The notes beneath the pieces were generated by a model. That model was not told the DNA's origin and ran no database searches. It worked only from the letters and a program-made list of their open reading frames with translations. The position numbers were made by a program, and so were the translations under genes. A stretch of 63,857 nucleotides of DNA, counting the filler. It is 5 parts of 5 records of this genome, joined end to end, with 100 filler letters (N's around TTAATTAATTAA, not from the genome) between each part and the next. Parts side by side here need not be neighbours in the genome. Positions count along the whole stretch, not along the records: positions 1 to 18,843 come from SRR20825019_95; 4 more parts are not named here. One strand, given 5' to 3'. The stretch's first letter is position 1. Each line of letters starts with the position of its first letter. Below, piece after piece: positions 1-58,801 of this stretch.

Positions 1-1617
1 GATACTCTCCAACCGCCGATCCAACGGCGCGATCACGGCCGGCAAACGCGACCATGCCATCGCCCGACGGGCCTCCACTTCCCGACGGATCGCTTCCAAT
101 TGACGCCGGTCCTCATCCAACTGCGGGCTCTTCAAACGCACCAGCACCTCCCCCGCCTCGACCCGCTGTCCCGACATCACCGGCAGTTCAGCGATTTGCC
201 CGGGCGTGCCCGCAAACTCTTCGATCACCCATCCACCCTTCACCACTCCGGGCGCCCGCACCGCGTGCGGCATCGGCACCCCGAGCAACAGTCCCACAAT
301 CAGCACCGGCATTCCGATCCCCCAGAGCCAAACGCGCGGGCGAACATCCCGCAGACGCGCATCCGTCCACAGATAACGATAAAATTTCCCCAGTGGTCCC
401 CCCAACCACACGATCAAACCGAGAATCGCCAAAACAAAACCCACCTCGAAAAGCTGTCCGGCAATAAACGCCACGATCACCAGCAGGACGAACACCCGGT
501 AGATCGCCGCCCCGGCTCCAAACAACCCCAATCCCGCCGCTCCACGCTTGCTGGCCGCCACCGGCGGCACCCCATCCAGCCCCAATCCCCTCAGCTCAAA
601 CCAACGGCGCCACTGCTGGGCCGACTGCCGATGCAGATTCGGGACCCCCACCCAATCCGCCAGCATGTAGTAGCCATCGAAACGCAGCAGCGGATTGATG
701 TTAAACAGGATCGTCGAAACCGAGGCCAAAAACATCACATTGTAAGCCACCTGGCCCAACGCTCCCTCGCCGCCCGTTCGCGCCCAGACCACCGCCGCAA
801 TCGCCGCCAGCCAGACTTCGAAAATCATTCCCCCCGCGCCCACCAACAGCCGCTTCCATCGCTCACGAAAAGCCCACGACGCACTCACATCCACAAACGG
901 CACCGGCGTGAAGACCAGCAACATCACTCCGCAGGAACGCACCTCCCCACCGTAGCGTTTCGTAATAATCCCGTGCCCCAATTCGTGGAAGATCTTCACC
1001 AACGCCCACGTGCCGTAGAGCCAGATCAAATTGGATTGCGACAGCACACCCTGCGTCTGTTCACGCAACAACCCCCAATGATCGATCACCGCCTTGCCCC
1101 CCATCAGAAACGTGGCCACCCAAACCATCAGCCCCAACGGACTGATCATCAGCCGTCCCAACGGCCTCAGGGTATTCAACAACGCGTCGGGATCAAACAA
1201 CGGTATCCTCAAAAACAGGAAATTCATCCACTGCTGGCGGGCCGACCGTTGCCTTTCCTTTTTCCGCCGCGCGACCATCGACCATGTCTCCGGCGGCGAA
1301 TCCACCAGCAGCAAATTCGCCCCGTGCAATTGGGCCATCATATCGATCACCTCCCGCTGTCCCGGAGCCTCATTCGGAGATTCGGCCAAAAACTCCCTCC
1401 AAATCTCCTCCACTGTTCTCCGGCGATCCAAGCGCGTCAAAAACCGCCACGCCTCCGGACGCATCCGGTAGTGACGGTTCGAAAACGGATCCGAGATCAC
1501 CTGCCAAAGCTGCCCGCGAAAAACCTGCCGTCGCACCGGGCAATCGGGACGCAGCGCCGCCCGCAACCCTTCGACGAGATGCCATTGATCGCTCAGCAAT
1601 CCATGTGTATCCGCCAT
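1..1617 (-). CDS. PqqD/RRE-like + site-2 (M50) metallopeptidase, probably continuing into a HlyD-type adaptor; runs off window start
   Basis: Not in ORF track. Manual translation from ATG 1617 gives MADTHGLLSDQWHLVEGLRAALRP..., with VKIFHELGHG (HExxH) and FNINPLLRFDGYY (NPxxxxDG) M50 motifs and hydrophobic segments. Starts 4 bp after the stop of the upstream gene. Confidence 0.85.
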   Translation of the reverse strand, partial: MADTHGLLSDQWHLVEGLRAALRPDCPVRRQVFRGQLWQVISDPFSNRHYRMRPEAWRFLTRLDRRRTVEEIWREFLAESPNEAPGQREVIDMMAQLHGANLLLVDSPPETWSMVARRKKERQRSARQQWMNFLFLRIPLFDPDALLNTLRPLGRLMISPLGLMVWVATFLMGGKAVIDHWGLLREQTQGVLSQSNLIWLYGTWALVKIFHELGHGIITKRYGGEVRSCGVMLLVFTPVPFVDVSASWAFRERWKRLLVGAGGMIFEVWLAAIAAVVWARTGGEGALGQVAYNVMFLASVSTILFNINPLLRFDGYYMLADWVGVPNLHRQSAQQWRRWFELRGLGLDGVPPVAASKRGAAGLGLFGAGAAIYRVFVLLVIVAFIAGQLFEVGFVLAILGLIVWLGGPLGKFYRYLWTDARLRDVRPRVWLWGIGMPVLIVGLLLGVPMPHAVRAPGVVKGGWVIEEFAGTPGQIAELPVMSGQRVEAGEVLVRLKSPQLDEDRRQLEAIRREVEARRAMAWSRLPAVIAPLDRRLESI

Positions 1618-1621
1618 CCGA

Positions 1622-3469
1622 TTACCACCACAGTTTAAGTTTCAACCAGTCCCTCAACCGTCGGGTAAAAATATCGAACAGACTGCGCTTCTCGGTCGGA
1701 ATCTTTCCGATGCCCGTCATCCCCGGACGCCACCACGCTTCCTGCGCTCCCCGGGGATTGGCCCGCACTAGGAAAAACGCGCCGCCTTCCTTTGCGATCG
1801 CCTCCGGCTCCATCCGCATCACTTCCGCCGGCACGATTTCTCCCGGACGACCACTGAACGCGATCTCCACCTTTCCGGCCGCCTGAATCAAGGGCGCATC
1901 CGCCTCCGGCACCGACAACTCAAAATACAACCCGTCGAGACGCGCAAACCGCAGCAACGAATCCCCCTGGCGAACCGGAGCCCCGAGACGTTCGTTCAAA
2001 TTCCCGTCATCCAGCACCGTGCCGGCAAACGGCGCGCGCACCACCGATTGCCCGATCTGCCGCTGCAAACGGGCCAGCCTCGCCGCCACCTGATCCCGCT
2101 GCGCCGCCGCCACTCGCATCTTGGCCAGATCATGCGCCGCCTCCGCCTGCTCGCGCTCGCGATTGTAACGGCTCAGATCCGCCAGCATCTCTCCCTCCTC
2201 CAACCGCAGCCCCGTGTCCTCCAGCGCAAACAATTCCTCCGATTTCTCCACCACATCCCCCGGACTGACCTGCACGGCATGAATGTAGCCGTCGAACGGC
2301 GCGCTGAAGACCATCTGTTGCCGCGGCCGCAATTGGAACTCCGCCTCCACCCGGTAGGGCACATGGATCAACAACGAAGCCAACAACAACAACGCCACAC
2401 TCACCGCCGCCACCTTTGGCCACGGATGGGTAAGATTCGCATGCCGTTGCAAAGCCCGCTCCGCCCCGCGTTTAAGCCGGCGAAACCAGTTTCCACTTCG
2501 CTGCTCCCGCTCTTCCATCAACGGTCCCAGCACATCCAACACGAGGGCGAACCGCTCGGCCTCATCCTGCGTAAAAATCCGATCGGCGCGGTGCCACGTC
2601 ACCGCGCCCACCACGCGGCCATCACTGCGCAACGGGATCGTGCACAGTCCTTCCCATCCCTGCAATCTGGCCAAAGCCGCATGCTGGACCAAAACTTCAC
2701 TCACCGGTGCCACCATGTCGTCGGCATGCTCATCCACATCGTCGGGAATCACAAAATCCGGCCATAATAACGTGGTATCCTGTTCCACGGCTTCCTCCAT
2801 CGCTGCTTCGATCTCACCGACTGCCGACATTCTGGCCTCGATCTGATTGTGCTGGCTGATCGCGCAGACCCGCACATACGGCTCCCGCCACCAACCGACC
2901 GCCACCCGATCCGCACCGTGGCGGGCCGCGAGTTGATTGCACAGCTCCAACGCCGCTCCTTCGAAAGTCGCGTGGCCACGTAACAAACCTCCCAATTCGA
3001 TCGCCGTGGCCAGCTCATCCGCCCGCCCTCGCAATGTCTCCAACTCACGGAAGCGACGGCGACGCCCCACCGCAGTCGCCCACAACAACGCCCGGTCGCG
3101 CCAGGCCATCTCGGTGGTTTCTTCCCACAATTCAGGGGGCAACGCCCCACCGACAATGAGAAACTCCGCCGCCTTTTCATCCCAGGGCAGACGAATCGCA
3201 AACCAACGCACCCCTCGTTCCCCTTCCTTCATCACCAGAGGACATTCCGGCGAAAGTCCCGCCTGCCAATCTGTCGGCGGTGTTTCCGAAGCTCCCCACC
3301 GTATAAGCGTTTTGGCCTCTTCTCCGCCGGTCTGCGGATGCAGGATCATCGCCGATCTGGCCCCTAGCACCGTCCCGGCCTCGCGCAACCAGACCCGCCA
3401 GAATTCCCGATCACTTGGGAGCGCTTCCGCCGTCAACCATTCAGATGGGGTGCGTGCAATCAGGGCCAT
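1622..3469 (-). CDS. GAF-domain + HlyD/MFP periplasmic adaptor fusion
   Basis: GAF-like LCTIPLRSDGRVVGAVTWHR, one TM, biotinyl-lipoyl halves SAPFDGYI / RAPFAGTV, coiled coil, WWRPGMTG, C-terminal KLWW. Confidence 0.85.
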   Translation of the reverse strand: MALIARTPSEWLTAEALPSDREFWRVWLREAGTVLGARSAMILHPQTGGEEAKTLIRWGASETPPTDWQAGLSPECPLVMKEGERGVRWFAIRLPWDEKAAEFLIVGGALPPELWEETTEMAWRDRALLWATAVGRRRRFRELETLRGRADELATAIELGGLLRGHATFEGAALELCNQLAARHGADRVAVGWWREPYVRVCAISQHNQIEARMSAVGEIEAAMEEAVEQDTTLLWPDFVIPDDVDEHADDMVAPVSEVLVQHAALARLQGWEGLCTIPLRSDGRVVGAVTWHRADRIFTQDEAERFALVLDVLGPLMEEREQRSGNWFRRLKRGAERALQRHANLTHPWPKVAAVSVALLLLASLLIHVPYRVEAEFQLRPRQQMVFSAPFDGYIHAVQVSPGDVVEKSEELFALEDTGLRLEEGEMLADLSRYNREREQAEAAHDLAKMRVAAAQRDQVAARLARLQRQIGQSVVRAPFAGTVLDDGNLNERLGAPVRQGDSLLRFARLDGLYFELSVPEADAPLIQAAGKVEIAFSGRPGEIVPAEVMRMEPEAIAKEGGAFFLVRANPRGAQEAWWRPGMTGIGKIPTEKRSLFDIFTRRLRDWLKLKLWW

Positions 3470-4191
3470 TGCTTGGGTTCTTCGGCCGACAGGCTGATCC
3501 AGCCCCGCAATCCCGGTTTGAGTTTGCCCGATTGATTGTCGATCCGGGCCCGTCCACGCATCAGACCACTGGAAGGATCAACCTGCGGATCGATAAATAC
3601 AATCCGACACTTCACCGTTTCATCCACCAAAGGCACCCTTACCCAAACCACACTGCCCGGGGCCAACGACAACCCCTGCTCCGGGGCCACGTAAAACCGC
3701 GCGTCGAGTTCCGCCACATCCAGCACCGCCAAGAGCGGCGTGCCCCGTTCCACATATTCGCCATCCACATGATGCCGCTCCGTCACCACTCCGGATTGGA
3801 CCGCCTTGATCACCCGTCGGTCGCGTCGCTCCCGGGCCTGGGCCAGATCCACCTCCGCCGCCTTTAATTCCGTCTCCTTGGTGATCTTCTCGGTCTCACT
3901 CGTCATATCATCGCTGAACAGCTGCTCCGCTCCACGATAATCAAATTGCCGTTTACGCAGCACTTCCTGCGCGCGGAGCACGGCCAGATCCTCCTCGGCA
4001 TGGTTAAACTCGATCAACACCTGCCCCACCGCGATGGCGGCTCCTTCATCGACCGCCACCCGTTTTAAAATCCCATCGACCGGCGCGCTCACCACCATCG
4101 AACGCACCGGCTCCAGCACCACCTCGACCGGTCGAGCCGTTCCTCCCGCGGCCAATCCAACGGATAGAATTAAAAACGCGAAAAACTTCAT
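3460..4191 (-). CDS. Efflux RND-type periplasmic adaptor (MFP)
   Basis: Signal peptide, SAPVDGIL, IDPQVDPSSG, LKPGLRG. Confidence 0.85.
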   Translation of the reverse strand: MKFFAFLILSVGLAAGGTARPVEVVLEPVRSMVVSAPVDGILKRVAVDEGAAIAVGQVLIEFNHAEEDLAVLRAQEVLRKRQFDYRGAEQLFSDDMTSETEKITKETELKAAEVDLAQARERRDRRVIKAVQSGVVTERHHVDGEYVERGTPLLAVLDVAELDARFYVAPEQGLSLAPGSVVWVRVPLVDETVKCRIVFIDPQVDPSSGLMRGRARIDNQSGKLKPGLRGWISLSAEEPKQWP

Positions 4192-5756
4192 CTCATCATC
4201 GCATCAAACGGAGCCATCAAACCGCTCCGGCGCGTTTCCCGCTCCGAACTGGCCATTGCGATTCCGTATTTTTCCAACAATTGACCACTCACCGCCCAGA
4301 GCTCCGTCACTGCCTTGGTGAGATCCACCCGGGCCGCCAACTCACGCGTGCGGGCGTCGGCCAATCGACGCTGGAGATCGGAAACCGCGAAACCGGAAGT
4401 CTGCCCTTGTCGTAATCGGGCCTCCTCCTGCTTCAAACCCTCTTCCGCAAAGCCCACCGATGTGCGCGCCGTGGAGAGACGCTGACCCAGCACGCCGAGA
4501 CGACGCACCGCATTGCGCACATCAAACGAAATCCGATGCTTCACCTCATCCGCCCGCATCGATGCCTGGCGCACCCGCAACCGGGCTGCCGTCGATTTGG
4601 CCTTGGCCGCCCGCCTACTCAACGGCAGCGAAATACTCAACCCCGCACCCCATTGCGGTTCATCCCCCTTGAACGCCGTGTCCAACGCGTCGCCGTAGGC
4701 ACCGCTCAAACCGTAAACGCCGTAGCTGAACTGCAGATCCAATTGCGGCAAACGCTCATTGTGCGCCGCCGTCTGGCGCACCTTTTCCTGGTCCACCTGC
4801 GCAAGCGCCATCTGATAATCCGGACGCGATTGCAGCGCCTTCTCGTAATAGCTTTCCTGGTCCACCTCGGGAGCCTCCGCCAGCAAATCCGCCCGCACCG
4901 CAGGCAACGATTGCGAATCGGGATCCAGCGCCAGCAGCCTCATCAGCTCCAACTGCCGCTCCCGATGAAAATCCTGCGCGTGCAGCCACTCCTCCGTCGC
5001 TTCCGACAAACGCACCTTCGCCTCCGTCACGTCCACCGGATTCAGCAACCCCAATTCATGACGACGGGCGGCCTCTTTCAAAAACTGCCCGGCCACCGAT
5101 TTGGCCCCCTCCTTCACCGCCACGTTCGACTCGGCGTAGGCCAGATCATAAAACGCGTTAAGCACTTCCACGCACTTGTTGTTCACCATCACCTCGCTCT
5201 CATGCTCATTGATAAGCAGCTGCTTTTGCGCCACCCGCAAAGAAGCAAGGTTGACCGATTTGCCAAACCCCTTGAGCAGAGGCTGCCGCAAAGTGATGCC
5301 GCCAAACGCCGTGTATTCGGGCGAGAACAGCGCGTTGGGCAGGCCCGCGCGATTCACCGTATTGTCCATTTCCCGCAATTGCACGGAGAGCTCATACGAC
5401 GTGCCCCATGGCAAACGTCCCCCCACTCCGCCTTTCATCGTCGTGTTCTCCTCGGCGAAAATCCGCTGCTGCAATGCCGCGAAATCGATCGAGTTTTGAG
5501 ACTTGGTATTATCCTCGTAGCTTCCCTCGGCAAAGAGGATCGGCAGAAATGCCCCCTCTTCGACCGCCACCCCCGCCTCGGCGATTTCCGGCGTGAGTTT
5601 CTCGGCTTGAAGCGAAAAATTCGCGGCCAGCGCCTGTTCCAGGGCGCCTCGGGCCGTATAAGTCTCCGCGTGAACGGACAAGGTCAACGCTCCGCACAGA
5701 GTGAATCCAGTCAGCCAACGGCAAACCGGAGTGTGAAAGAAGATAGGGTTTCGCAT
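4188..5756 (-). CDS. TolC-family outer membrane protein
   Basis: Signal peptide, two OEP repeats, LRQPLLKGFG, LPQLDLQFSYG, WGAGLSISLPL. Confidence 0.9.
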   Translation of the reverse strand: MRNPIFFHTPVCRWLTGFTLCGALTLSVHAETYTARGALEQALAANFSLQAEKLTPEIAEAGVAVEEGAFLPILFAEGSYEDNTKSQNSIDFAALQQRIFAEENTTMKGGVGGRLPWGTSYELSVQLREMDNTVNRAGLPNALFSPEYTAFGGITLRQPLLKGFGKSVNLASLRVAQKQLLINEHESEVMVNNKCVEVLNAFYDLAYAESNVAVKEGAKSVAGQFLKEAARRHELGLLNPVDVTEAKVRLSEATEEWLHAQDFHRERQLELMRLLALDPDSQSLPAVRADLLAEAPEVDQESYYEKALQSRPDYQMALAQVDQEKVRQTAAHNERLPQLDLQFSYGVYGLSGAYGDALDTAFKGDEPQWGAGLSISLPLSRRAAKAKSTAARLRVRQASMRADEVKHRISFDVRNAVRRLGVLGQRLSTARTSVGFAEEGLKQEEARLRQGQTSGFAVSDLQRRLADARTRELAARVDLTKAVTELWAVSGQLLEKYGIAMASSERETRRSGLMAPFDAMMR

Positions 5757-5910
5757 GCTATTGAGGAGGTGTCGCCGAAATTAGCACGCCCCGCATCATC
5801 CCCCTATCCCTCTTTGGAGGGGGAAACAGCTCACCCGTCCTTCACCACCCCGGTGAAAGCTGAAAGGCAAATAAACTGGACTCCCGCGAATATCTCCGAC
5901 CGACCGGCGA

Positions 5911-8900
5911 TCAGAGCAAAGTGATCCCCCTGGGCTGCATCAGCGATTCCAGCGAACTTTCGGACACCAGTTCGGAATCATTGGCAGCCGATGATCTCGC
6001 CACGCTTTTCTCCTTTGAAGTAACGGTTTCTGGTTTCTCGGTCACAGGCGTCAGACGCACCACCCGGACCACCGATCCGTCATCCTCGTCCACCAACAGG
6101 CTTTCAAAGGTCAGGCGGAAGCTGACGGTGACCTGTTCGGCGGCAGTCCGGCGCATCCCCATGAGCTCCACTGCTGAGAGACGATTCAATCCCACCGTAA
6201 ATTCTCCCACCACACCCTGATGATCCAGGCTGAATGACAATCCATCGGTGTAAACATCCCCATCCGCCGGAAGCGTGACGCGAATCGTCTGCGTCGTTTC
6301 ACCCGGGGCAAAGACCACGGAGCCTTGGCTGAGACCCGCATCATAACCAAAGACCAGCGCTTGAGTGGAAGGAATCGAAAGATGCAACGTGATCACCGCG
6401 CGGCCTTCACTATCGACTCCCACGTGCTGCCCGATTTCCAGTTCCGGATAAACCGCCACGGCAAAGCGTGTATTCGTCGCCCCGTTGGCATCGCGAGCAA
6501 TCAGATCGAACACTGCCAACCCCGCCAAACCGCGGTCGCCGGTGAGGATCAAGACGCCGTTCTCGATGACTGCGGTCACGACTTGGTTCTCACCCACCGG
6601 CACCAGTTCGTAGGTGGCGTCGCCATTCGGATCGGAGAAAACACCACGCAGATCGATACCCACCATCTCATCCTCGCCCAGGATTTGCGCGGGCACGGGA
6701 CGGATAAGTTGCACGGTGTTGTTGATGCCGTTGAAGGTCACACGGAAGCGCGTCTCTCGGACATGCTCGCCGTCCGACACCCGCAGCGTCAGCTCCGTCG
6801 AGCCCGTGCCCACCGCAAAGGTCGGCACGATCATGACCCACTGCGCACCATCGAGCACAAACTCAACTGCGTCGGTGTTGACCAATCCCGGCGTGTCGGC
6901 CACCAGGCTGATGTCGAGACTGTCGAGTCGTGAATCCGTATCGTAAATCGGCAGGGCAATCGTCAGCCGGTCGCCTCCGGCCACCACCTGATCGCCAATG
7001 TCTTCGAGTTCCGGAGCCGTCGTCGGCAGAAGAGCGTTTTCATCCACGTCGGACAGGAAGTTTTCCAGAGTAAAGGCCGCGGCCACCGCGTCGGCATCCA
7101 CTTCCCCGCGACCCACCGCTCTGAGCAGATCGGCCACATCGGTGAACAGCTCGGCCTTAACCTGCGCCAGTTCGCGGTCGACCGCGCCGCCGTCTTCAGC
7201 CGTGGCCACGATGACGTGATTAATGATGCCGAGCACCGCCGCGGCGGCATCGATTTGCGAAGTCGAGAGGTTTGCTCCGAGTCGGTTCGACGCATTGCCC
7301 AGCACATTACTCAGCGCGGCGGCGTCGCGCAGATCGAGCACTTCATCGCCGAGGTCATTGTCCTGTGTGCTCGCGTAAAGCCAGTCAGCCAGCGCATCGA
7401 GCATCGCGTCCTGTTGGGCCGCACCGTCGAGATCACCAAAGAGCCCCGCACCACCGGTCACCAACGAGGTAAGCTGTGCCATGGCCGAAAGGACGGAGTT
7501 TTCCGTCAGGGAGTCCATACCGCCCACCGTGGCACCGGGTTGCATGAGGTCGACATTGACCTGATCGGCCAGGGCAAAAGCCTGATTCACGAGTTGATCA
7601 GCATCTTCGGCCGACATGCCGCGATCCACCAGCGCGACTTGCAGCGTGCTGAGGGGATTCATGTTGAAGGCAATGCCCTGACCGTAATTAGCGGCCAGCG
7701 CCATGGTGGCAAACGGAGCCTCCAGACCGTTGTCCGTATCCGTGCCGCCGAGTGCGACGAGCACACCTTCGCTGTGATCGATCACGCCATTGCCGTTGGT
7801 GTCAAACGGTGCCAAACGCCCAAGTGGATTGGTCCGTGTCGGGGCAGGGCCTTCCACGAAGGTGTAGATATTTCGGTCATCCGGACGCGCCATCGGTTCG
7901 CCCTCATCATAGCGACCATTCCCATTGGCGTCGGCGAAAACATATTCCGCGTTGGTTACTGGCAGCGCGCCGGTGGCGAGTGAGGGAATGCGGGTCAATG
8001 GCACCAAGCTCGTTTCATCGACGAAGACCAGGGCGTCGGCACGGGCACCGGAGAGAATACCGTCTCCATTGCGATCGAAGATAGCGAGCGGCGTGCCGAC
8101 CACGCTGATATCACCGTGCAGGACGCGGGTATTGTGGAAATCTTCCGTGAAATCGGGTGTGAGATGGGCGGAGAGTTCACCGGAATCCAAACGCCCATTA
8201 CCATTGGCGTCGTCATAAATGCGGAACCCGTTGACCAGTTCGTCGAGCGAGGTGCCGTTGACCGCATAGAGCGCGATCTCGTCGGATGTGAGCTCCCCAT
8301 CACCGTTGGTGTCGAACTGGGCGAGACGGCCAAGCACGTCGACTTCGGGAACTTCGATCGGATTGAAATCAAAGTTGCCCGCCTCATCCGTAGTGGTGAA
8401 CGGCTCCGACGCCTGACGCAGGCCGTCCCCATTGAGATCGAAGAAGATCGTCGCTCCCGCCCATTCGGTCGTGCCGTAGTCGAGATGCTCATCCACCGCT
8501 ACCGGGCTGGTGCCCGCCGCGCCCGAGAAGACGTGCCTGCCGCCGACGACGTGCATGATGCCTTCGCTCTCGTCGAGGTAACCGTCTCCATCCGCATCGT
8601 AGACCGACAGGACACCGAGTGAGACTACGTCTCCGGTCACACTACCCGGTTGGTTGGGATCAACTGCAACCGGCTCGATTACAGCCTCATCCTCGTTGAA
8701 AGTAAAATACCCGTCGCCATCCGCCGTCGTGAAAGGTTCGCCCGCATCAAGCTGGCCGTTGCGATTAACATCAAGGAACACCAGCGAACCGCCCACATTG
8801 GACTTCGAAATCGTAACGCCGTTGGCGAAGCTGACCTTCAGGCTGTAGGTGATGCCCAGCAATTTCACTGACACGCTGGCCGTCTTCTTGCCCAAATCAA

Positions 8901-11900: not shown

Positions 11901-14900
11901 TCGCCATGCGGAACAATTCGTAGGCGGCGGCATTCTCCAATGCGGGAACACCGACAATTAGGTTGGCCTGGGTGTCGAGCGTAGCCGTATTGCCTTCAAC
12001 CTTCAGATGGTAGTCGCCCTCGATGCGGAAAGCTCCAAAGGTCAGCGCCGCATTGAAATCGACCCGCGCGTAGTTACCGGCCTCGAGAATGATGCCGTTG
12101 CGGTTTTGCTCTGTTCCAGTCGTGTTGATCCGCAGGCGGAACTGTGAACCTTCGTCGAAGCCGAGACCGATCTCACTGAACAAATTGACCGGCGCATCCA
12201 AATCCAGCGCCGCGCTCATCCCGGTGCCATCCACCCGCAAGCCGCCCTGGGCTGTGAAAGAAAACAGGGTTAAGTCCTCGATCGCCACGCTGAGGTTGGC
12301 GTCGAGGTCGACATTAACCACCCCGTCCTGCGCGCTGAAGTCGAACCGACCATTGAAATCAAGACCCAGAAACTTGGTGTGCCCCGTCGCGCTCAGGATC
12401 GCGTAAGGTCCGGCCGCCAACGTCGTGTCGCCAATCGTCACCGCCGTTGAACGGGTGTTCACCTCGAGATTGAAATCAAAGCCCACACTCACGAAGTCCG
12501 CCAGCACACCAGCCGATTCCTCATGGGTGGCCGTCATGCGGCCGGCAATACCGGTGAAGTTCAAATCAAAGGCCCCCGTGGTGGCAAAGCGCATCAGCGG
12601 CGCGTCCACCGGACCAAGCGTCACCGAGGCCGAGCTGTGCAGCGTCGTGGCGTTGACCGTGGCGTCCAAGTAGAAGTCGCCGGTCAGGGTCACCCCGCCG
12701 ATGACCGCCCGCCCATCGATGGCGACGTTAAGGAACGGACCGGCCTTTAGATTGCCCTGCGGTTGATTGGTCGTGTTGATCTGCACCTTCACCGAGCCCT
12801 CCAGATCCAGTCCGGGAATATTCAGCCCCAGCTCGGCCAATGATCCTTCGATGTCGATCTCATGCACGATGCCGGGAATCGTCAGCTCTATCGCGAAATC
12901 GAGCGGCACTCGCATCAACTCCTGCTCCTCCGCCCTGACGATGAGCGAAGCCGACGCCGCAAAACCGATGCCCGTCGTCGTCGCCGTCAGATCGTAAACG
13001 CCATCGAGACGCCAGTCGCCAATTTCCAGCGAACCGCTCACACGCACTCGGGCACCAAGGCCGGATGGCACGCCTTGAATCGTCTCCGAGGTCGTGTTGA
13101 TGCCGAGGGTAAAGGTCGCCGTGTCGCCAAAGCCAAACCCGTAGTTCTGACGACCGTTGGCCTGCTCCACGAGCTGAAGGTTGGCGAACAGGCCGTCGAG
13201 ACTCAGCCGCAGGACCCCATCGTAGGAAAATTTGTAAAACTCCACCCCGGCCGTGGACAGGCTGATCGATCCGCTCGCATCTAGAGCAACGTATTCGCCT
13301 TCAATTGATAGATCGAACACACCGGCCAAAGTCAGTTGTCCGATGGTCAACTCACCGTCCCCGCGCATCCGCAGATAGTCCCCCGCCTCGACATCGCGTC
13401 CATCGATCTCCTGGGCGGCACCAGTGGTGTTGACCTGCAGAGAGAAGCTGGCCTGCGCGAAATCTGGAATCAGCGCCGCGTATTCCGACTTCTTGACCTG
13501 GCTCAGGTCGTGATCGAGCACCATGTCGACCCCGCCATAGAGACCGGACGAATCCAAGCGGAACTGACCGGAAAGTGTAAAGTGGAAGTATGTGGTGTCG
13601 CCCGCCTTAAGTTCGGCAAACGCGTCAAAGGACAGATCGACGACCCCATTGGCCGCGGTCAGATCAAACATGCCAGTGAGCACCACCTGGTCGAGCACGC
13701 GCATCGTGCCGTTAGCCCGGATCAGCATATAGGGCCCGGCTTCGCCTACACTGTTGCCATCACGCGAGGGGGGGCCACGCGGCAGATGGATGCGATCAAC
13801 CGAGGTAGACTCGAGCAAATAAGTCGGTGTCTCATAATCCACATCCACCCCGAGCGTGTTCATCATGAAGGTGAAGTCGCCGGTCAGCTGCACACCAGCC
13901 GTGCGCAGGGGATTACTGTCCTCCAGCGACAGGTTGAGCGAGGCCGCCATGCCGACGGAGATACCTTCAACCACCAGTTTCAGATAGCCATTGGCGTCAA
14001 AGCGCAGTAATGGGGCGGCGCGCGCCCCGGCCATGATCGTGCCACTCACCACCGCGTCGAATCCTCCCTCAGTCCAGACAAAGCTAGTCAGCCCCTGCAT
14101 GTAAAACACCTCGGTGTCTTTCACCGAGAAACTGACGTAACCTTCGTGTAAAATGCTACCCTCGTTGGGATTGAGAGTGAAGGTCTTGGCTTCGGTCTGC
14201 CCCGGAAGAGTCAGCGTATAATCAACGCTCTCACCCGTGCTGTTGAAGCGCATCACGGCCAGCCCATCCAGTTCCAAGCCGATCTTTTCCAGCGCACTCA
14301 GATCTCGTGGCGCGATGGAGAGCACGCCGATTAGCTGCACGTTTTCCTCACCATCGAAATACACATCAAACTCACCCGACATCCCGACCACATCCCCGAG
14401 GCCGATCAATTTGGCCCGCCCCTCCACGGTCAGATGCAGACTGGGCATATCCAACTTCACGTCAAAGATCGCCTGCCCCTCGATCGTGAAGAGCGGCACT
14501 AAATTAAAGAGCCGCATTTCGATTCCACCGATGATCGTCACCTGGAATTGTTCAAACGCCGCAGTCGGTGGGTTCTCATGATCGATCGTCACCCCGAAAT
14601 CAAACAGCAACTGCCCGTAGAGCCTGATGCCCCCTTTCTTCGCTGGATCGATAGGGATCTCAGCAGCAAAGAGCATGTTGGCTCGGCCTTCCGTTGTGAT
14701 CTTGCTCAGGTCGGTGTAAAGACGAGCCCGGAAGGTCATGGTATCCTTCGCGAGCTTGAACCGGCCGTAGAATAGAGATTTGCCAGTCGTATCCATCAGG
14801 AAATCGGCCTCGATGGAAAAGGCATCCCGGCTCGCGTAGGAGCTGAATATCGTCACGCCGCCTTCGATCCGGAAGTGATCCAGCAACGCAGCAAACCCGG

Positions 14901-17900
14901 CGTCACCCTGGTGATTCTTAATCTGACGCTGCAGGGTGCTGATCATCTGCGCCCGCCACTCGTTGAACGTCATGTCATTGACCGGTTTGAAGTCGAATCC
15001 CGGCCCAAACATATCCCGGGCATCGGTTATCTCCGGTATCGTCGTGTTGAAGGTGATGCCCGCCCGGAAATCCGTCAGCGCCAGTCCCGTCACGAAAGGA
15101 TCGACCACGACAGGGGCGACGACCTTGATATAACCCTGCATTGGGCCGTATTGCGACATACCGAGGTAAAGCGCGAAGCCACCATAGCCAGCGATGACGA
15201 TCTCCCCTTGGATGGCCCCCCAGATCACCTGCTGGGCCACGGGAGTCGTGGTATCACTGGACCCGATGATGTTGCCATCCGCATCCACGCGGGCCAGACC
15301 GAGGATGAGCGCACCACTGATCGTGCTGCCGCCCATCGAGCCCCCTATCGCGATATTAAACTCGGATGGGAATTCGGTGATGTAAAACTCCCCGTTGATC
15401 AACTTGCCGACATCAATGACCAGATTGTCAATCGAACCGATCAACGTGATCGCCGTTCCCTTGATTGGCAAACGACCACCCAAGCCGTCCACGCCAACGG
15501 TGGCGCTGACCCTCAAGGTGAAGTCCAGAACATTGTCCTCGATATTCTGCCAATGGGCTTCAATGAGACGCACTTGGAAGGGCATCCAGAAGGGCAGACC
15601 CATGCGTGAGTTGAAGTCGTCTCCCTGACTAAAGCTCACTTTGAACTCGCCAGTTTCCCCGGCCGTAATTTTCCCATTCGCCAACACCGACAACGCGGTG
15701 GACTGCCCCACCAGCGAAATCGCGGCGATCTCGACCTTGGCAGACTCAATCGCAAACGCCACCTGGTCCCCTGTCGCCAGGAAGTTCACCACCAGCCCAT
15801 TGGCCTCCATCGTCAGGTGTTCTCCGATCGTCAGAGCCGCCCGCTGCACCGAGGCCGCCGCTGCCGTGATATCCCGGATTTCCGGATGGTAATGACTGTA
15901 GAGGCCGTTCCCAAAATCCGTTCCCGATCCCACCGACTGAATCGTAAACCCAAACGCCAGTTTCGCATTGGTGACCTCCAGATAATCGCCGTAATTGAAA
16001 TTGAGGCTAAACTCCGCCGCCATCGTCGCACTAAGCGTTGACGGATCCCAGGTGCCCGACACCGCCACGTTCAGATCGCCACTCAAATTCTCCGACTCTC
16101 CCGCATCGGCAATTGTCAGGCTTCCCGCAAACACCGGCGTCCAGTTTACTCCGGCCAGCTCTCCCAACGTAATCGAACCGTTGAGAGTGAAGCTCCCACC
16201 GAGTTCCCAATCCTTGATCCTGAGAGTCACCGTCCCGATTTCCGCCGGAGTAAATCCGTCCGGGCCCTTGCGCAGCTCCAAATCAAACACATCCGAGCCG
16301 TCATCCACCAACGAACCGCCAAGCTCCACCTCCAGCGGGAAGGGCAGATTGGCCAGCTTGCTGTAATCCATCACCGCCTTACCCGCCAAAGCAAAAGCAT
16401 CCAGCGTGAAGGTCTCGCCTTCGTCCCGCGTGCCATTGCCATTCACATCCCCGGCAAAGTTCACCGTCACGGAATTCAACAACACCGGCAGCACCTGGCC
16501 TATCGAAACTTGTCCCGGACCGTCACTCTGCAGCGTCATGCCGTCCACCGTCGCCGCCCCGGTCTTGGTCAACGCCAGCCCGTTGATCTCACCGCTCAGC
16601 CCGTATTGCCCCAAGCTTACCTGTATATTATCCACCGCCAACACCGTGTCGCTCTCCGGCCGCAGGGTCAGGTTGCTGGCGTCGAATTTCACCGATCCGG
16701 TAATCGAAAAACTCAACGCGTCAGTGCCCAGTTCGAGCCGATCATCAGTCTTCGTCAGATCGTAGCTGCCGCTCAGAGTAGTGGCCGTGGCCGTAAACCC
16801 ATCGTTGTCCGGAAACAGCGTGCCCGTATCGGCGGTGAGGTTCACCTCATCCGCGCTCACTGTGCCGCTCAGAATGGAGATGCCCTCAAAGGAGACGGCG
16901 GCATCGCTCACGGCGACGGTTCCACCCAATGTAATCGTCGGAATGTTCAGGCTGCCTTCACCGATCGCAAAGCCGTTGGTCCGGATCGAGACGCTGGCAG
17001 CCGAAGTCGACGGGGGCCCGGTGCTCGGGGTGCTCTTGAGGAAAAGTAAAGCGACCGGCGCATTGTCCAACTGCACCAACTCCTGCTCGTCGGTCACGTT
17101 GCGCTTATGTTGCAGCGTCAATCCCGCCGCCACGATCTTGACCAAATTAGCGGCCAGAATCTCAAACTGATCCGCGGTCGTGGTGAAGGTTTGTCCCGCA
17201 AAATCATAGCTACCGGTCACGGCATAATCATCCGCATCATCGCCATCGGTGATCGTGGAACTGAATCCAGTGGCATCCGGCTCAAACTGGCTCTCGCCAC
17301 CCGTAAAGGTCAGTTGCCCCGTCCACGCCCCCGAGCCGAAATCACCGCTCAAAGAGCCACTCGCCGCGAAAGTCCCGATCGAAAGATAATTGCCCCCGGC
17401 TGGATTAACCACCGAGATCACATCGGTGTTCATCGTGCCGTTGAGAGAAATGGTATCCTGATCAAAACCTGCCGTGAAATCAATTGTCGGGGTCGAACCA
17501 TCCTCGCTCAGAAAATCCAGATCGGCTTGCAGCGTGCCGCTGCCGGTGAAGGACGATCCGCTGACACTAATCGCAAAATTCTGAGCCGCCACGGCCAATC
17601 CCTGCCAAGTCAAGTCGGCCTGCGAACCGCTCAACTTCCACGCCGCGCCACCTGCCTCAAGGGTCCCCGTCAGCGCGATCTGAGCCGCGTGGCCACTGCC
17701 ATCCGTGACTCCGGGCAGCGTGAGGGTGCCCGTCAGGGCAGCTGTCGAAGCCACCGTGGTCGATCCGGTTTCCGCCGTGCGACTCATCGTGTAATCTCGA
17801 CTGTAATCCATCGCAACCGGAGCCCCGGCCAGATCGAGACTCACCTTCACCGTGCCCGACGCGGAAGCCGCCGTCCCGGCATCGGTTTTGAATACCGTCA

Positions 17901-18843
17901 AGTTTACATCGACAGCCGTGGAGCCCGAAGCCGTCACCGTGCGCCCGCCCTGTCGCACCGAACCGGTCAATGTCGCGGCGCCGGCCACAGCCAGCGCAAG
18001 ATTCGTGTCAGTCAACAGACTAAAACCACCGTCGCGCCATTCAAACGCCACTCGTTGCATCAACGTGGCCAGCAGATTGAGGGTCGCCGTCAGGTTCAAG
18101 GTGTCAGCCAAACCGGCCAACAAATCGGCGGGTTCCACAAAATTTCCCTGGGCATACCCCGGATCGATTCCGAGATCAGCCGCCACTTGGCGGGAAAGCC
18201 GCGCTTCAAAATCCGCACCGGTCGCCGAATCACTCACCGTATAGCCGGCATTGGTCAGCGCGGTTCTGGCCTCGGCCACCGTGCTGGCAGCACCAATTTC
18301 CGGCAGCACCAATCCGGCGGATTGAGCCGTCAAATCAAAGAGATCATCCAGTGCGGTGGGCAGGGTCGGCAGCGCAAAGGAAGGCCGCCCCGTGGCCGCA
18401 AAACTAATCGTGGTCAGATCAAATGCGTCGAGCAGGCTCTGCATCGAAGTGGTCAACTCCCCCAGTCCCGCATTAATGGAATCGCCCACCGTCACCGCTG
18501 TATTCTCCGCCACGGCCTTGGGGGCCACCACCTCCATCGTCGGCACACTGACTTCGATTTGCAGACCTGTCTCGCTCCAAGTCGTCGCCACTTGCTGATC
18601 GGCACCTGTGGTCACCAGAGTCGTCGGAGCCTCTATGGATTCTGGTAAGGTCACCAAGTTGGCCAAGATCGTGCCATCCGTCAGATCCGCGGTATCGGTT
18701 TTGACCACCACCGAACCCGCTTCCGCCAGATTTACATTTCCGGACAAGACCACGCCGTCAGCCGCATCGGCAGTCCAGACATCAATCGCCATCGTCCACT
18801 CTCCGCTGAGAGTAATTGAGGCACCTTCAATCTCGGCGACCGT
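5911..18843 (-). CDS. Giant secreted/surface protein (>4293 aa, N-terminus truncated by contig end): beta-rich repeats, SdrD-B/EF-hand-like DxNxDG repeats, Ig/cadherin-like and Calx-beta-like C-terminal domains
   Basis: Single open frame continues to the linker. Repeated NTTG modules; FFDLNGDGLRQASEPFTTTDEAGNF-type repeats; GSVVFAPGETTQTIRV (Calx-beta-like). Confidence 0.85.
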   Translation of the reverse strand, partial: TVAEIEGASITLSGEWTMAIDVWTADAADGVVLSGNVNLAEAGSVVVKTDTADLTDGTILANLVTLPESIEAPTTLVTTGADQQVATTWSETGLQIEVSVPTMEVVAPKAVAENTAVTVGDSINAGLGELTTSMQSLLDAFDLTTISFAATGRPSFALPTLPTALDDLFDLTAQSAGLVLPEIGAASTVAEARTALTNAGYTVSDSATGADFEARLSRQVAADLGIDPGYAQGNFVEPADLLAGLADTLNLTATLNLLATLMQRVAFEWRDGGFSLLTDTNLALAVAGAATLTGSVRQGGRTVTASGSTAVDVNLTVFKTDAGTAASASGTVKVSLDLAGAPVAMDYSRDYTMSRTAETGSTTVASTAALTGTLTLPGVTDGSGHAAQIALTGTLEAGGAAWKLSGSQADLTWQGLAVAAQNFAISVSGSSFTGSGTLQADLDFLSEDGSTPTIDFTAGFDQDTISLNGTMNTDVISVVNPAGGNYLSIGTFAASGSLSGDFGSGAWTGQLTFTGGESQFEPDATGFSSTITDGDDADDYAVTGSYDFAGQTFTTTADQFEILAANLVKIVAAGLTLQHKRNVTDEQELVQLDNAPVALLFLKSTPSTGPPSTSAASVSIRTNGFAIGEGSLNIPTITLGGTVAVSDAAVSFEGISILSGTVSADEVNLTADTGTLFPDNDGFTATATTLSGSYDLTKTDDRLELGTDALSFSITGSVKFDASNLTLRPESDTVLAVDNIQVSLGQYGLSGEINGLALTKTGAATVDGMTLQSDGPGQVSIGQVLPVLLNSVTVNFAGDVNGNGTRDEGETFTLDAFALAGKAVMDYSKLANLPFPLEVELGGSLVDDGSDVFDLELRKGPDGFTPAEIGTVTLRIKDWELGGSFTLNGSITLGELAGVNWTPVFAGSLTIADAGESENLSGDLNVAVSGTWDPSTLSATMAAEFSLNFNYGDYLEVTNAKLAFGFTIQSVGSGTDFGNGLYSHYHPEIRDITAAAASVQRAALTIGEHLTMEANGLVVNFLATGDQVAFAIESAKVEIAAISLVGQSTALSVLANGKITAGETGEFKVSFSQGDDFNSRMGLPFWMPFQVRLIEAHWQNIEDNVLDFTLRVSATVGVDGLGGRLPIKGTAITLIGSIDNLVIDVGKLINGEFYITEFPSEFNIAIGGSMGGSTISGALILGLARVDADGNIIGSSDTTTPVAQQVIWGAIQGEIVIAGYGGFALYLGMSQYGPMQGYIKVVAPVVVDPFVTGLALTDFRAGITFNTTIPEITDARDMFGPGFDFKPVNDMTFNEWRAQMISTLQRQIKNHQGDAGFAALLDHFRIEGGVTIFSSYASRDAFSIEADFLMDTTGKSLFYGRFKLAKDTMTFRARLYTDLSKITTEGRANMLFAAEIPIDPAKKGGIRLYGQLLFDFGVTIDHENPPTAAFEQFQVTIIGGIEMRLFNLVPLFTIEGQAIFDVKLDMPSLHLTVEGRAKLIGLGDVVGMSGEFDVYFDGEENVQLIGVLSIAPRDLSALEKIGLELDGLAVMRFNSTGESVDYTLTLPGQTEAKTFTLNPNEGSILHEGYVSFSVKDTEVFYMQGLTSFVWTEGGFDAVVSGTIMAGARAAPLLRFDANGYLKLVVEGISVGMAASLNLSLEDSNPLRTAGVQLTGDFTFMMNTLGVDVDYETPTYLLESTSVDRIHLPRGPPSRDGNSVGEAGPYMLIRANGTMRVLDQVVLTGMFDLTAANGVVDLSFDAFAELKAGDTTYFHFTLSGQFRLDSSGLYGGVDMVLDHDLSQVKKSEYAALIPDFAQASFSLQVNTTGAAQEIDGRDVEAGDYLRMRGDGELTIGQLTLAGVFDLSIEGEYVALDASGSISLSTAGVEFYKFSYDGVLRLSLDGLFANLQLVEQANGRQNYGFGFGDTATFTLGINTTSETIQGVPSGLGARVRVSGSLEIGDWRLDGVYDLTATTTGIGFAASASLIVRAEEQELMRVPLDFAIELTIPGIVHEIDIEGSLAELGLNIPGLDLEGSVKVQINTTNQPQGNLKAGPFLNVAIDGRAVIGGVTLTGDFYLDATVNATTLHSSASVTLGPVDAPLMRFATTGAFDLNFTGIAGRMTATHEESAGVLADFVSVGFDFNLEVNTRSTAVTIGDTTLAAGPYAILSATGHTKFLGLDFNGRFDFSAQDGVVNVDLDANLSVAIEDLTLFSFTAQGGLRVDGTGMSAALDLDAPVNLFSEIGLGFDEGSQFRLRINTTGTEQNRNGIILEAGNYARVDFNAALTFGAFRIEGDYHLKVEGNTATLDTQANLIVGVPALENAAAYELFRMAMSGGFEISRAGVAAVFDLNAGSLEQISFGDIVLPVTTGSTYRLQLNTTGEARTIAGIDLAAGRYARIDTQGKFDIGFAKAEGQVSIYAGQKGVELDFVSVVKVGIPGTQLEIIQWDLRGGFSVTAKGVYGIAQLTAGVGLSGLQSLGITFDTVGQHSVETLVINTTGVEQTAGELTIEAGNYIEFRYNRVMSIGAIRSEGGGTMRLASDGLHMYGKGELFMGIPGVFTLYRASNDMDWRITSEGAWGRSTLTRSNDAITIGDLSISPDANQQAVLQFNTTSKTQTIAGEDIKAGTFHIASNTSIDFLGQTFIGDSLLAVDTESGYGMISFTGDLKIRLGDWEAFDFSADGFFAINNHGVAVGMELTAKGSSSIAGARLSGNFKLEASTLREQIVVPDFKVGEVSVPGRTVGVGKFFRVHLDGSLTTDIGLSANGTFDMLIDGNGFAVDASISITALGVTLSGSGLMRISSEGVVAKFTLNSPRISNALYTVDAGTFELAINTTGKAQSGLAARIAEIGIRDAEIAVLNAKITGTAYITFDGGVTLRIIDMTSTLNLPWLGGIKFTVNGWMNTAGQFRFTGTTDIAIGSRSSLGIFAQAEVTVSSADGIYGTFAGIIEVPGPDYGNASGSFSANSSGITLNVAHSAFYLLNNLVLVQGGVTLRGDNQGVLTATFHNVTGRINAPGLTQTLTLNGSISTNGYIDLHGTMDLNVGDTVLGLRTSASVTIRNDSIIGSLSGRLYVPGDYSEFSGDFYISSSTFVINVYRARFSLLGGAIILEGGGSLRVSSTGMRLEVKNVTADVSGVFRTTVSGHIDTNGSFSFDGTLSLNTGSRSLAAIEGSMRLQVSSDSGVRGWLNGNVYLLGSRVAGIKDTTISFDSSGFNLRTSFNLGWQGFSFWGTLNMSSRSGEVSASLSGSASLWGLSGNVSASFGKGSYSMSGDLSFSTSGGWLIEYGASGKLKYSINNGNVSIKASGSAWIGTYVYYLFGRDWKQVSTQFSGSIDLGKKTASVSVKLLGITYSLKVSFANGVTISKSNVGGSLVFLDVNRNGQLDAGEPFTTADGDGYFTFNEDEAVIEPVAVDPNQPGSVTGDVVSLGVLSVYDADGDGYLDESEGIMHVVGGRHVFSGAAGTSPVAVDEHLDYGTTEWAGATIFFDLNGDGLRQASEPFTTTDEAGNFDFNPIEVPEVDVLGRLAQFDTNGDGELTSDEIALYAVNGTSLDELVNGFRIYDDANGNGRLDSGELSAHLTPDFTEDFHNTRVLHGDISVVGTPLAIFDRNGDGILSGARADALVFVDETSLVPLTRIPSLATGALPVTNAEYVFADANGNGRYDEGEPMARPDDRNIYTFVEGPAPTRTNPLGRLAPFDTNGNGVIDHSEGVLVALGGTDTDNGLEAPFATMALAANYGQGIAFNMNPLSTLQVALVDRGMSAEDADQLVNQAFALADQVNVDLMQPGATVGGMDSLTENSVLSAMAQLTSLVTGGAGLFGDLDGAAQQDAMLDALADWLYASTQDNDLGDEVLDLRDAAALSNVLGNASNRLGANLSTSQIDAAAAVLGIINHVIVATAEDGGAVDRELAQVKAELFTDVADLLRAVGRGEVDADAVAAAFTLENFLSDVDENALLPTTAPELEDIGDQVVAGGDRLTIALPIYDTDSRLDSLDISLVADTPGLVNTDAVEFVLDGAQWVMIVPTFAVGTGSTELTLRVSDGEHVRETRFRVTFNGINNTVQLIRPVPAQILGEDEMVGIDLRGVFSDPNGDATYELVPVGENQVVTAVIENGVLILTGDRGLAGLAVFDLIARDANGATNTRFAVAVYPELEIGQHVGVDSEGRAVITLHLSIPSTQALVFGYDAGLSQGSVVFAPGETTQTIRVTLPADGDVYTDGLSFSLDHQGVVGEFTVGLNRLSAVELMGMRRTAAEQVTVSFRLTFESLLVDEDDGSVVRVVRLTPVTEKPETVTSKEKSVARSSAANDSELVSESSLESLMQPRGITLL

Positions 18844-18943
18844 NNNNNNNNNNNNNNNNNNNNNNNNNNNNNNNNNNNNNNNNNNNNTTAATTAATTAAN
18901 NNNNNNNNNNNNNNNNNNNNNNNNNNNNNNNNNNNNNNNNNNN
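18844..18943. other. Artificial contig linker (N44-TTAATTAATTAA-N44)
   Basis: N runs flanking a six-frame stop sequence. Confidence 0.98.
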
Positions 18944-47267: not shown

Positions 47268-47367
47268 NNNNNNNNNNNNNNNNNNNNNNNNNNNNNNNNN
47301 NNNNNNNNNNNTTAATTAATTAANNNNNNNNNNNNNNNNNNNNNNNNNNNNNNNNNNNNNNNNNNNN
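47268..47367. other. Artificial contig linker
   Basis: N44-TTAATTAATTAA-N44. Confidence 0.98.
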
Positions 47368-52649: not shown

Positions 52650-52749
52650 NNNNNNNNNNNNNNNNNNNNNNNNNNNNNNNNNNNNNNNNNNNNTTAATTA
52701 ATTAANNNNNNNNNNNNNNNNNNNNNNNNNNNNNNNNNNNNNNNNNNNN
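52650..52749. other. Artificial contig linker
   Basis: N44-TTAATTAATTAA-N44. Confidence 0.98.
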
Positions 52750-57957: not shown

Positions 57958-58057
57958 NNNNNNNNNNNNNNNNNNNNNNNNNNNNNNNNNNNNNNNNNNN
58001 NTTAATTAATTAANNNNNNNNNNNNNNNNNNNNNNNNNNNNNNNNNNNNNNNNNNNN
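57958..58057. other. Artificial contig linker
   Basis: N44-TTAATTAATTAA-N44. Confidence 0.98.
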
Positions 58058-58792: not shown

Positions 58793-58801
58793 CGGACACT
58801 C

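Follow-up and report, generated by a model that had tools for sequence, protein, structure and literature searches.

To our knowledge, the export of bacterial proteins of 5,000-13,000 residues is largely unexplained outside the type I secretion of RTX (repeats-in-toxin) adhesins. The locus described here occupies positions 1 to 18,843 of a DNA stretch of 63,857 nucleotides (hereafter the window), and encodes the 3′ part of a giant protein together with most of a conserved export cassette. As in type I secretion (HlyB-HlyD-TolC, LapA/LapBCE), the cassette would provide a one-step duct made of a TolC-like outer membrane factor (OMF) and HlyD/MacA-like periplasmic adaptors (membrane fusion proteins, MFP). 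The cargo of the window is also of the type I kind, being giant, acidic, cysteine-free, calcium-binding and without a Sec signal. The cassette differs from type I secretion in that it contains no ATP-binding cassette (ABC) transporter, has three different adaptors of which one is fused to an M50 protease, includes a SecA-family ATPase, and serves a cargo family with a conserved N-terminal leader, termed LEPR-XLL, instead of or besides a C-terminal signal. We hold, with slightly more confidence than doubt, that it is a TolC-dependent one-step exporter of LEPR-XLL proteins, built around an M50-adaptor fusion guided by a RiPP (ribosomally synthesized and post-translationally modified peptide) recognition element (RRE) and driven by a shortened SecA-type motor.

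The single components resemble parts of other described systems. As in the bacteriocin exporters whose ABC transporter contains a C39 peptidase, leader recognition and cleavage would be joined to the export machine. In contrast to these, the cassette has as its peptidase an RRE-bearing M50 intramembrane metalloprotease that is fused to an adaptor and not to the motor, it uses a SecA-like motor, and its cargo counts thousands of residues versus tens. The SecA-like protein shares with SecA and SecA2 the first nucleotide-binding domain (NBD1), the preprotein cross-linking domain (PPXD), NBD2 and the conserved ATPase motifs, but it has only about 660 residues, ends about 120 residues after its GRGTD motif and, unlike SecA2, is encoded with TolC and adaptors and not with SecY2 or glycosylation genes. 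The M50 fusion resembles site-2 proteases (S2P; RseP, SpoIVFB) and the M50 leader peptidases of RiPP pathways (YydH/LiaK, daptide protease) by its invariant HExxH and NPxxxxDG motifs and its S2P fold, and its N-terminal domain is RRE-like as in RiPP systems. Unlike all of these, the fusion joins M50 to a periplasmic HlyD adaptor and would most likely act on the N-terminus of a giant protein, and its scores stay below the family cut-offs. In its periplasmic part, the adaptor carrying a GAF domain (GAF-MFP) is closest in fold to MacA (Foldseek, 3fpp, E 2e-13), as in MacAB-TolC; however, no MacB/FtsX partner belongs to the cassette, and a MacB-like pair was found at one locus only (L019), 4-5 kb away. 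Full-text literature searches returned neither an account of the cassette nor one of a machine serving LEPR-XLL proteins, the term 'LEPR-XLL' itself turning up in two papers; the "M50" strings in the parts of PMC8277102 and PMC4446572 that they returned are residue or DOI numbers. A preprint on a green sulfur bacterium describes giant proteins flanked by sapC and tolC and proposes a type I-like export for them, without this cassette in the part of its text available to us (bioRxiv 10.64898/2026.03.19.712371).

Five open reading frames (ORFs) of the minus strand make up the locus, in the order giant protein, OMF, small MFP, GAF-MFP and M50 fusion (Table 1), as the preliminary description of this DNA had reported. 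They follow each other closely, with a gap of 154 nt between giant and OMF, overlaps of 4 nt (OMF/MFP) and 10 nt (MFP/GAF-MFP), and a gap of 4 nt before the M50 fusion; a scan of the longer gap revealed no promoter or terminator. The locus is one contig fragment cut at both ends, through the giant gene at its 5′ side and through the M50 fusion at its 3′ side. The 5′ end of the giant gene is missing, since the frame is open right up to 18843. The 3′ end of the fusion gene and the sequence downstream are missing as well, because homologues of the fusion measure about 718 residues and only 539 codons are present here. Searches with Pfam and NCBIfam found no ABC or resistance-nodulation-division (RND) domain within 1-18843; the fragment being truncated, the statement that no pump is visible therefore describes this contig end only.

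The surroundings of the M50 fusion were then compared among related genomes. Twenty homologues were aligned and the alignment was scanned against species-representative genomes; at least 515 of 600 candidate stretches were confirmed as encoding a relative of the fusion, and the best 80 of these at least 515, each with up to 10 kb per side, constitute the set of loci to which the counts below refer. The family itself comprises 3620 cluster representatives at E-values up to 1e-30. Nine phyla are represented among the 80 loci, including Verrucomicrobiota (41), Pseudomonadota (18), Thermodesulfobacteriota (9) and Planctomycetota (4). The window's fusion groups with those of loci L001 and L002 (69-71% identity); the closest locus is L001, from an Opitutus metagenome-assembled genome (69%), in which giant, OMF, MFP, GAF-MFP and M50 fusion follow each other as in the window and are succeeded by a gene for a SecA-like protein. 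The GAF-MFP gene directly precedes the fusion in 63 of 71 loci, and where at least 5 kb of upstream sequence was available (54 loci), 42 encode an OMF and 43 a small MFP. Of the 49 loci long enough to hold all five cassette genes, 42 have them, and the full set occurs in 46 loci in all, 38 of these 46 keeping the order and strand of the window. These counts, which answer the call of the preliminary description for a check of neighbourhood conservation, support the gene set as a conserved unit rather than a chance neighbourhood.

At 68 of the 70 loci with at least 600 nt of downstream sequence, the M50 fusion is immediately followed by a SecA-like ORF, which often overlaps the stop codon of the fusion gene, as does the ATG of the 666-residue protein of L001. 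The cassette is hence defined in the order OMF, small MFP, GAF-MFP, RRE-M50-HlyD fusion and SecA-like ATPase. The window holds four of these five genes and the 3′ part of the cargo gene, and the fifth gene, judged from the related sequences, should sit just beyond position 1. The same association is seen in plasmids: ranking the records by M50-fusion hit and by SecA-like hit yields an identical top 12, in which the two genes lie side by side, within about 3 kb. The preliminary description had proposed that the M50 fusion replaces the ABC ATPase by itself; a SecA-family ATPase as the next gene at nearly every related locus argues against that proposal.

The L001 protein matches the Pfam models SecA_DEAD (1e-71), SecA_PP_bind (1e-11) and P-loop_SecA (2e-41), and its alignment covers positions 27-556 of the 789 of the SecA model. 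It misses all the NCBIfam cut-offs for SecA (TIGR00963 / PRK09200) and SecA2, the best score being 425 versus 862 bits. Alignment to Bacillus subtilis SecA chains spans about residues 19-563, which we take to be NBD1, PPXD and NBD2. Walker A is conserved in 69 of 69 SecA-like ORFs, DExD in 65 and GRGTD in 60. The 59 complete copies extend just 107-133 residues past GRGTD and so lack the wing domain, two-helix finger and C-terminal tail, leaving a protein of about 660 residues with the layout NBD1-PPXD-NBD2. In canonical SecA these missing parts engage SecY. Public annotation of this motor is inconsistent, its labels including 'hypothetical protein', 'preprotein translocase subunit SecA', 'prepilin peptidase' and 'DEAD/DEAH box helicase'; one 'prepilin peptidase' was confirmed as SecA-like (44% identity, E 5e-113).

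The M50 fusion, annotated in its homologues as 'putative peptide zinc metalloprotease', comprises a predicted PqqD-like RRE at about 20-105, HELGH at 211-215, NPLLRFDGY at 308-316, a last transmembrane (TM) helix at 429-447 and then the start of a HlyD domain. Hydropathy predicts a cytoplasmic segment 1-150, six strongly hydrophobic helices within 156-447 and a periplasmic HlyD part. The M50 zinc site (H211, E212, H215 and D314) is invariant across 20 sequences. The AlphaFold2 (AF2) model of the fusion (predicted local distance difference test, pLDDT, 77) places strands at 28-33, 36-43 and 48-52 and helices at 54-62, 69-79 and 87-99, a predicted order that is that of a PqqD-like recognition element. 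Foldseek matched the model to the Methanocaldococcus jannaschii S2P and to SpoIVFB (3b4r, 8vjl; probability 1.00), and to PqqD, TbiB1 with leader and a lasso B1 protein with leader (5sxy, 5v1v, 6jx3; probability 0.99, TM to target 0.63-0.69); as the query has several domains, the E-values remain weak. The best NCBIfam matches of the fusion are daptide_HExxH (NF041824; 1.2e-48) and then YydH/LiaK, and an ESM Atlas look-up gave only M50, PqqD and adaptor clusters and no new name. Of the two domain assignments of the preliminary description, the M50 protease agrees with fold and motifs, and the PqqD/RRE domain with the predicted fold.

Residues R51, R53, Q87, Q96 and L97 of the fusion are invariant and lie on strand 3 and helix 3 of the RRE, the surface with which PqqD-like elements hold leaders. 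The invariant Glu-Glu-Arg pattern of the LEPR-XLL leader, described below, would suit the arginines of this surface. The folding of the RRE with a leader, suggested in the preliminary description, was carried out with the RRE of Synoicihabitans (P0015, residues 1-112) and the LEPR-XLL leader of the giant protein of the same genome (P0124, residues 1-50). The complex score was 0.60 versus 0.00 for the best of three controls. Among reference pairs, 51 of 78 solved complexes attain the mark of this test, as do 2 of 108 mismatched pairs. Between runs, 72% or more of the contacts are shared, and the pLDDT of the partner is 49 or higher. This is weak support. Because RRE-leader complexes have already been solved, the pass may reflect likeness to them, and the result raises our odds only a little.

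As for the other adaptors and the OMF, the Pfam models HlyD_D23 and HlyD_3 match both MFPs. The small MFP scores 73.5 bits with HlyD_D23 and 109.8 bits with the NCBIfam model RND_mfp, and has an N-terminal hydrophobic stretch at 1-19. Residues 1-352 of the GAF-MFP are predicted to be cytoplasmic and to form an alpha/beta domain, a long helix and the GAF domain (23.5 bits, cut-off 22.4); a single TM helix (353-371) leads to a periplasmic part modeled as a MacA-like adaptor with a short hairpin (AF2, pLDDT 81.6). The NCBIfam TolC models match the OMF with scores below their own cut-offs.

The giant protein of the window contains no cysteine, 512 aspartates and glutamates versus 232 lysines and arginines, and seven DxNxNGxxDxxE loops. 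It has no HemolysinCabind match in Pfam and no GGxGxD, in line with the absence of an RTX tail noted earlier; its extreme C-terminus is conserved within its lineage. Proteins that pass through the envelope in an unfolded state typically have such a composition. Full-length homologues measure 7294, 7210 and 6314 residues. One of them, P0124 of Synoicihabitans lomoniglobus, is named 'LEPR-XLL domain-containing protein' by NCBI, and the ORF of the window aligns from about its residue 1421, about 1400 N-terminal residues being lost. Both P0123 and P0124 start with M..RRAEF...F.VEALEPRVMLSADG, and the stored start of P0125 falls inside the motif, at MLSADG. A regular-expression search in six frames found no LEPR-like motif in the window, where the giant protein is present without its N-terminus; judged by its homologues, it is a predicted member of the LEPR-XLL family.

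The leader is recurrent beside the cassette, in keeping with the earlier suggestion that a conserved N-terminal leader should be sought in the cargo. Thirteen co-oriented giant ORFs begin just after the SecA-like gene; 11 pass the cut-off of NF012209, one scores 16.7 versus a cut-off of 17, and in one the motif was recognized by eye only. A hidden Markov model that we built from 15 LEPR-XLL N-termini finds 22 such ORFs in 21 loci. Their consensus, F-x-[LV]-E-x-L-E-x-R-x-L-L-S-A-D, is preceded by a basic stretch and lies 10-45 residues from the likely start; both glutamates and the second leucine of the pair LL are invariant (22/22), and the arginine is conserved in 21 of 22. The proteins that carry these N-termini beside the cassette range from about 270 to 12,918 residues. 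On annotated plasmids, LEPR-XLL giants of 4,033 to 12,918 residues are encoded directly upstream of the cassette. Among the plasmids of cultured Alphaproteobacteria, that of Pseudosulfitobacter has the order LEPR-XLL protein (12,918 residues), GAF-MFP, site-2 protease, SapC, SecA-like protein and MFP. In Methylosinus an 8,847-residue giant with FDTLEPRVLLNAD is followed by DUF3467, MFP, 'PqqD family protein', SecA-like protein, MFP and TolC, and Mesorhizobium ciceri encodes a giant of 10,518 residues with FEALEPRLLLSAD. The Pseudosulfitobacter record (L081, NZ_CP085155.1), whose LEPR-XLL gene is 38,757 nt long, has two places with an M50 fusion and two with a SecA-like gene, and the plasmid probably carries two cassettes.

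From gene content, gene order, domain folds and motifs we infer leader binding, leader cleavage, a path through the inner membrane, an outward direction of transport and a role for the GAF domain, as follows. A giant acidic cysteine-free protein would be made with a short N-terminal LEPR-XLL leader, which the cytoplasmic RRE of the M50 fusion would bind as an added strand. The SecA-like ATPase, which would keep the motor and the polypeptide clamp without the parts that canonical SecA uses on SecY, would feed the unfolded chain into an inner-membrane portal made up of the M50 domain together with the GAF-MFP's TM helix, and the M50 site would cut the leader off. The three HlyD/MacA-like periplasmic domains would assemble into a mixed adaptor tube that docks on the TolC-like trimer, and the chain would fold outside with calcium. 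The GAF part may gate the machine.

Several observations weigh against this proposal. The SecA-like gene lies outside the window, and its presence here is deduced from relatives, the closest being L001 and L002; it is absent at two of the 70 loci (L056 and L080), where Pfam found no replacement ATPase among the neighbours. In the window's fusion the start of the biotin-lipoyl/HlyD domain was detected by Pfam, whereas Peptidase_M50 (25.2, cut-off 27.2) and PqqD (19.4, cut-off 23.4) score under their gathering cut-offs; we retain both calls because the fold agrees (AF2, Foldseek). The complex score lies in a weak range, values of 0.60 or less occurring in only 5 of 78 solved complexes and in all 4 passing mismatches (of 180). 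The giant protein of Alisedimentitalea shows no motif in its first 100 annotated residues. A giant (at least 900 residues) or LEPR-XLL ORF lies within 2.6 kb of the cassette at 40 of the 80 loci, a loose count that accepts either strand, and at about half of the loci neither is within reach. The distant units and the conserved C-termini treated below also count on this side.

Distant forms of the unit exist without an ATPase gene. A sister unit occurs in 24 of 5426 complete Escherichia coli genomes, mostly on plasmids (L090, L092, L093; NZ_CP081687.1, and the chromosome NZ_CP010170.1), in the order 4,459-residue Ig-like protein, TolC, MFP, MFP without GAF and M50-HlyD fusion, with no ABC and no SecA-like gene nearby. 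The giant protein has the N-terminus ...RFALESRQLFDGAA, a LEPR-like variant, and the fusion keeps HELGH and RFDGY at 28% identity to that of L001 over 554 residues. The units on Magnetospirillum pMSR-1 and Thalassospira pCSC3H3 likewise have neither a SecA-like nor an ABC gene nearby, the latter despite its LEPR-XLL cargo and with DUF3467 present. These distant plasmid units are not among the 12 records with the closest M50-fusion and SecA-like genes. Because such motor-less units exist, the core may need no motor; it seems to consist of OMF, two MFPs and M50-HlyD fusion, with the SecA-like motor and the GAF domain marking the clade of the window. The reading of the preliminary description in which no ATPase takes part is, at least for that clade, a contig-end artefact; the E. 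coli, Magnetospirillum and Thalassospira forms do lack such a gene nearby. Extended to the whole family, that reading would make the M50-HlyD fusion with its adaptors the inner-membrane component, energized by proton-motive force, folding or calcium, and would leave the SecA-like protein a role in targeting or holding only. We regard this as unlikely. In the window's clade the ATPase gene is translationally coupled and accompanies the fusion at nearly all the loci and in all 12 plasmid records counted above, with its ATPase motifs conserved. In E. coli, IS1 or Tn3/IS5 remnants directly follow the M50 fusion and bound the unit, and since the Magnetospirillum unit also ends at insertion sequences, the gene could have been lost in both. 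In addition, we know of no tripartite exporter in which a chain thousands of residues long is moved with no energized inner-membrane component.

Within lineages, the giants share conserved extreme C-termini, as seen by comparison of those of the window, L001, L017, L019, L025, L032, L034, L036, L066 and L074. The Opitutaceae type, which includes the window (5911-6000), reads ...SDLVAATSLxALExPRxLxG[IL], and the proteobacterial type ends in ...[FY][DE]YWxE..L at the very end. These C-termini could be a true export signal as in classical type I secretion, a second signal or an anchor. Moreover, some cassette-linked giants carry RTX nonapeptide repeats (L031, 2-9964; L063, 7386-14750); in that of L063 they stand together with a LEPR-XLL N-terminus, so that the two are not exclusive. 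A classical ABC exporter, HlyD adaptor and RTX protein are encoded in the same window, and SapC family proteins (PF07277) are encoded within or next to the cassette at 13 of the 80 loci (L017, L025, L029, L030, L032, L034, L037, L038, L045, L048, L057, L061 and L078; 14 ORF hits, two of them in L032) and on the Pseudosulfitobacter plasmid (L081, 14245-15066). SapC is known from the sap locus of Campylobacter fetus. One might therefore take the giant for an ordinary type I substrate, exported C-terminus first through an ABC/HlyD pair encoded elsewhere, for instance at 30879-33934, the cassette supplying the TolC-like duct, or else processing or retaining the N-terminus. We consider this improbable. 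ABC-like ORFs, sought by phmmer with three ABC queries from the window, were found at three of the 80 loci (L004, weak; L019; L073), none adjoining the cassette, and are thus lacking near it at 77; the giant of the window has no GGxGxD motif; the ABC set of the window adjoins its own RTX gene on another contig; and supplying a duct alone would not call for three adaptors, one of them joined to a polytopic membrane protein. Nor did Pfam identify an RND pump in 30 of the 31 non-cassette ORFs of 800-1400 residues, the 31st being AsmA/YhdP-like. Among ORFs of 200-800 residues ABC ATPases alone were sought (phmmer), so that major facilitator superfamily (MFS) or other small pumps are possible there, although clustering gave no recurrent family of that size. 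The first claim about this locus, that ABC and RND pumps are not part of the gene set, is upheld in this survey.

Still more improbable is that the cassette matures or exports small RiPP-like leader peptides, or performs regulated intramembrane proteolysis, with the giants incidental: an RRE with an M50 domain is typical of RiPP leader peptidases, as the best NCBIfam hits recall, and half of the loci show no giant nearby, but the fusion misses the daptide equivalog cut-off (166.2 versus 300 bits), clustering of 401 neighbouring ORFs gave no recurrent modifying enzyme or small precursor family, and LEPR-XLL N-termini stand directly beside the cassette on proteins of the sizes given above.

The only recurrent families among those 401 ORFs are giants, SapC, Lcl_C-domain proteins (8 of the 80 loci) and sensor kinases. 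DUF3467 was considered as a general accessory of the cassette and rejected, with one weak match in the 80 loci. It is encoded between giant and cassette in three of five annotated alphaproteobacterial plasmid loci (Table 1), and may be a lineage-specific chaperone.

Table 1. Coordinates of the cassette locus, of other features of the window and of DUF3467 genes at related loci.
Feature	Location	Strand	Evidence or setting
Giant ORF, 4293 codons from first ATG; frame open to 18843	5911-18792	minus	translation
TolC-like OMF, 522 aa, signal peptide	4188-5756	minus	Pfam OEP, 141.9 bits
Small periplasmic adaptor (MFP), 243 aa, Sec-type signal peptide	3460-4191	minus	Pfam, NCBIfam
GAF-MFP, 615 aa	1622-3469	minus	Pfam, hydropathy, AF2, Foldseek
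PqqD-like/M50/HlyD fusion, first 539 codons, runs off position 1	1-1617	minus	Pfam, NCBIfam, AF2
Artificial contig joiner, 44 N + TTAATTAATTAA + 44 N, stops in all frames	18844-18943		
Second RTX protein, 439 aa	18986-20305	plus	start of next contig piece
HlyD adaptor	30879-32204	minus	next contig piece
ABC exporter with membrane domain	32201-33934	minus	next contig piece
RTX protein, 425 aa	33980-35257	minus	next contig piece
DUF3467 small protein	L082 9735-10055		
DUF3467 small protein	L085 8781-9086		
DUF3467 small protein	L087 9684-9980		

The window consists of at least five contig pieces joined by spacers, and adjacency across the joins is meaningless; further copies of the joiner lie at 47268-47367, 52650-52749 and 57958-58057. 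Upstream of the classical type I set, a glycosyltransferase and a methyltransferase are encoded (35001-38385). A small contig piece carries a gene for a Fic-domain protein (51486-52562), and another piece has at its edge a Y-family polymerase (IMS) gene beside a PHP-domain ORF (58010-60271), a pair resembling an error-prone repair cassette truncated where the contig ends.

Beyond the single locus, we tentatively propose, as a possibility to be taken seriously though short of probable, that the cassette represents a distinct type of secretion system of diderm bacteria dedicated to LEPR-XLL proteins, with a motor-less sister on E. coli plasmids. The cassette is present in cultured strains, for example Synoicihabitans lomoniglobus, Pseudomaricurvus alkylphenolicus KCTC 32386, Pseudosulfitobacter sp. 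DSM 107133 and Mesorhizobium ciceri R30, and so is directly testable. If the proposed exporter is real, TolC ducts would have a fourth kind of inner-membrane partner, besides ABC, RND and MFS transporters; the SecA motor would have a second use, away from SecYEG; and a site-2-type protease would act as an export-coupled leader peptidase. The LEPR-XLL N-terminal motif, whose carriers, of up to about 12,900 residues, include some of the largest proteins described from bacteria, would then gain a machine.

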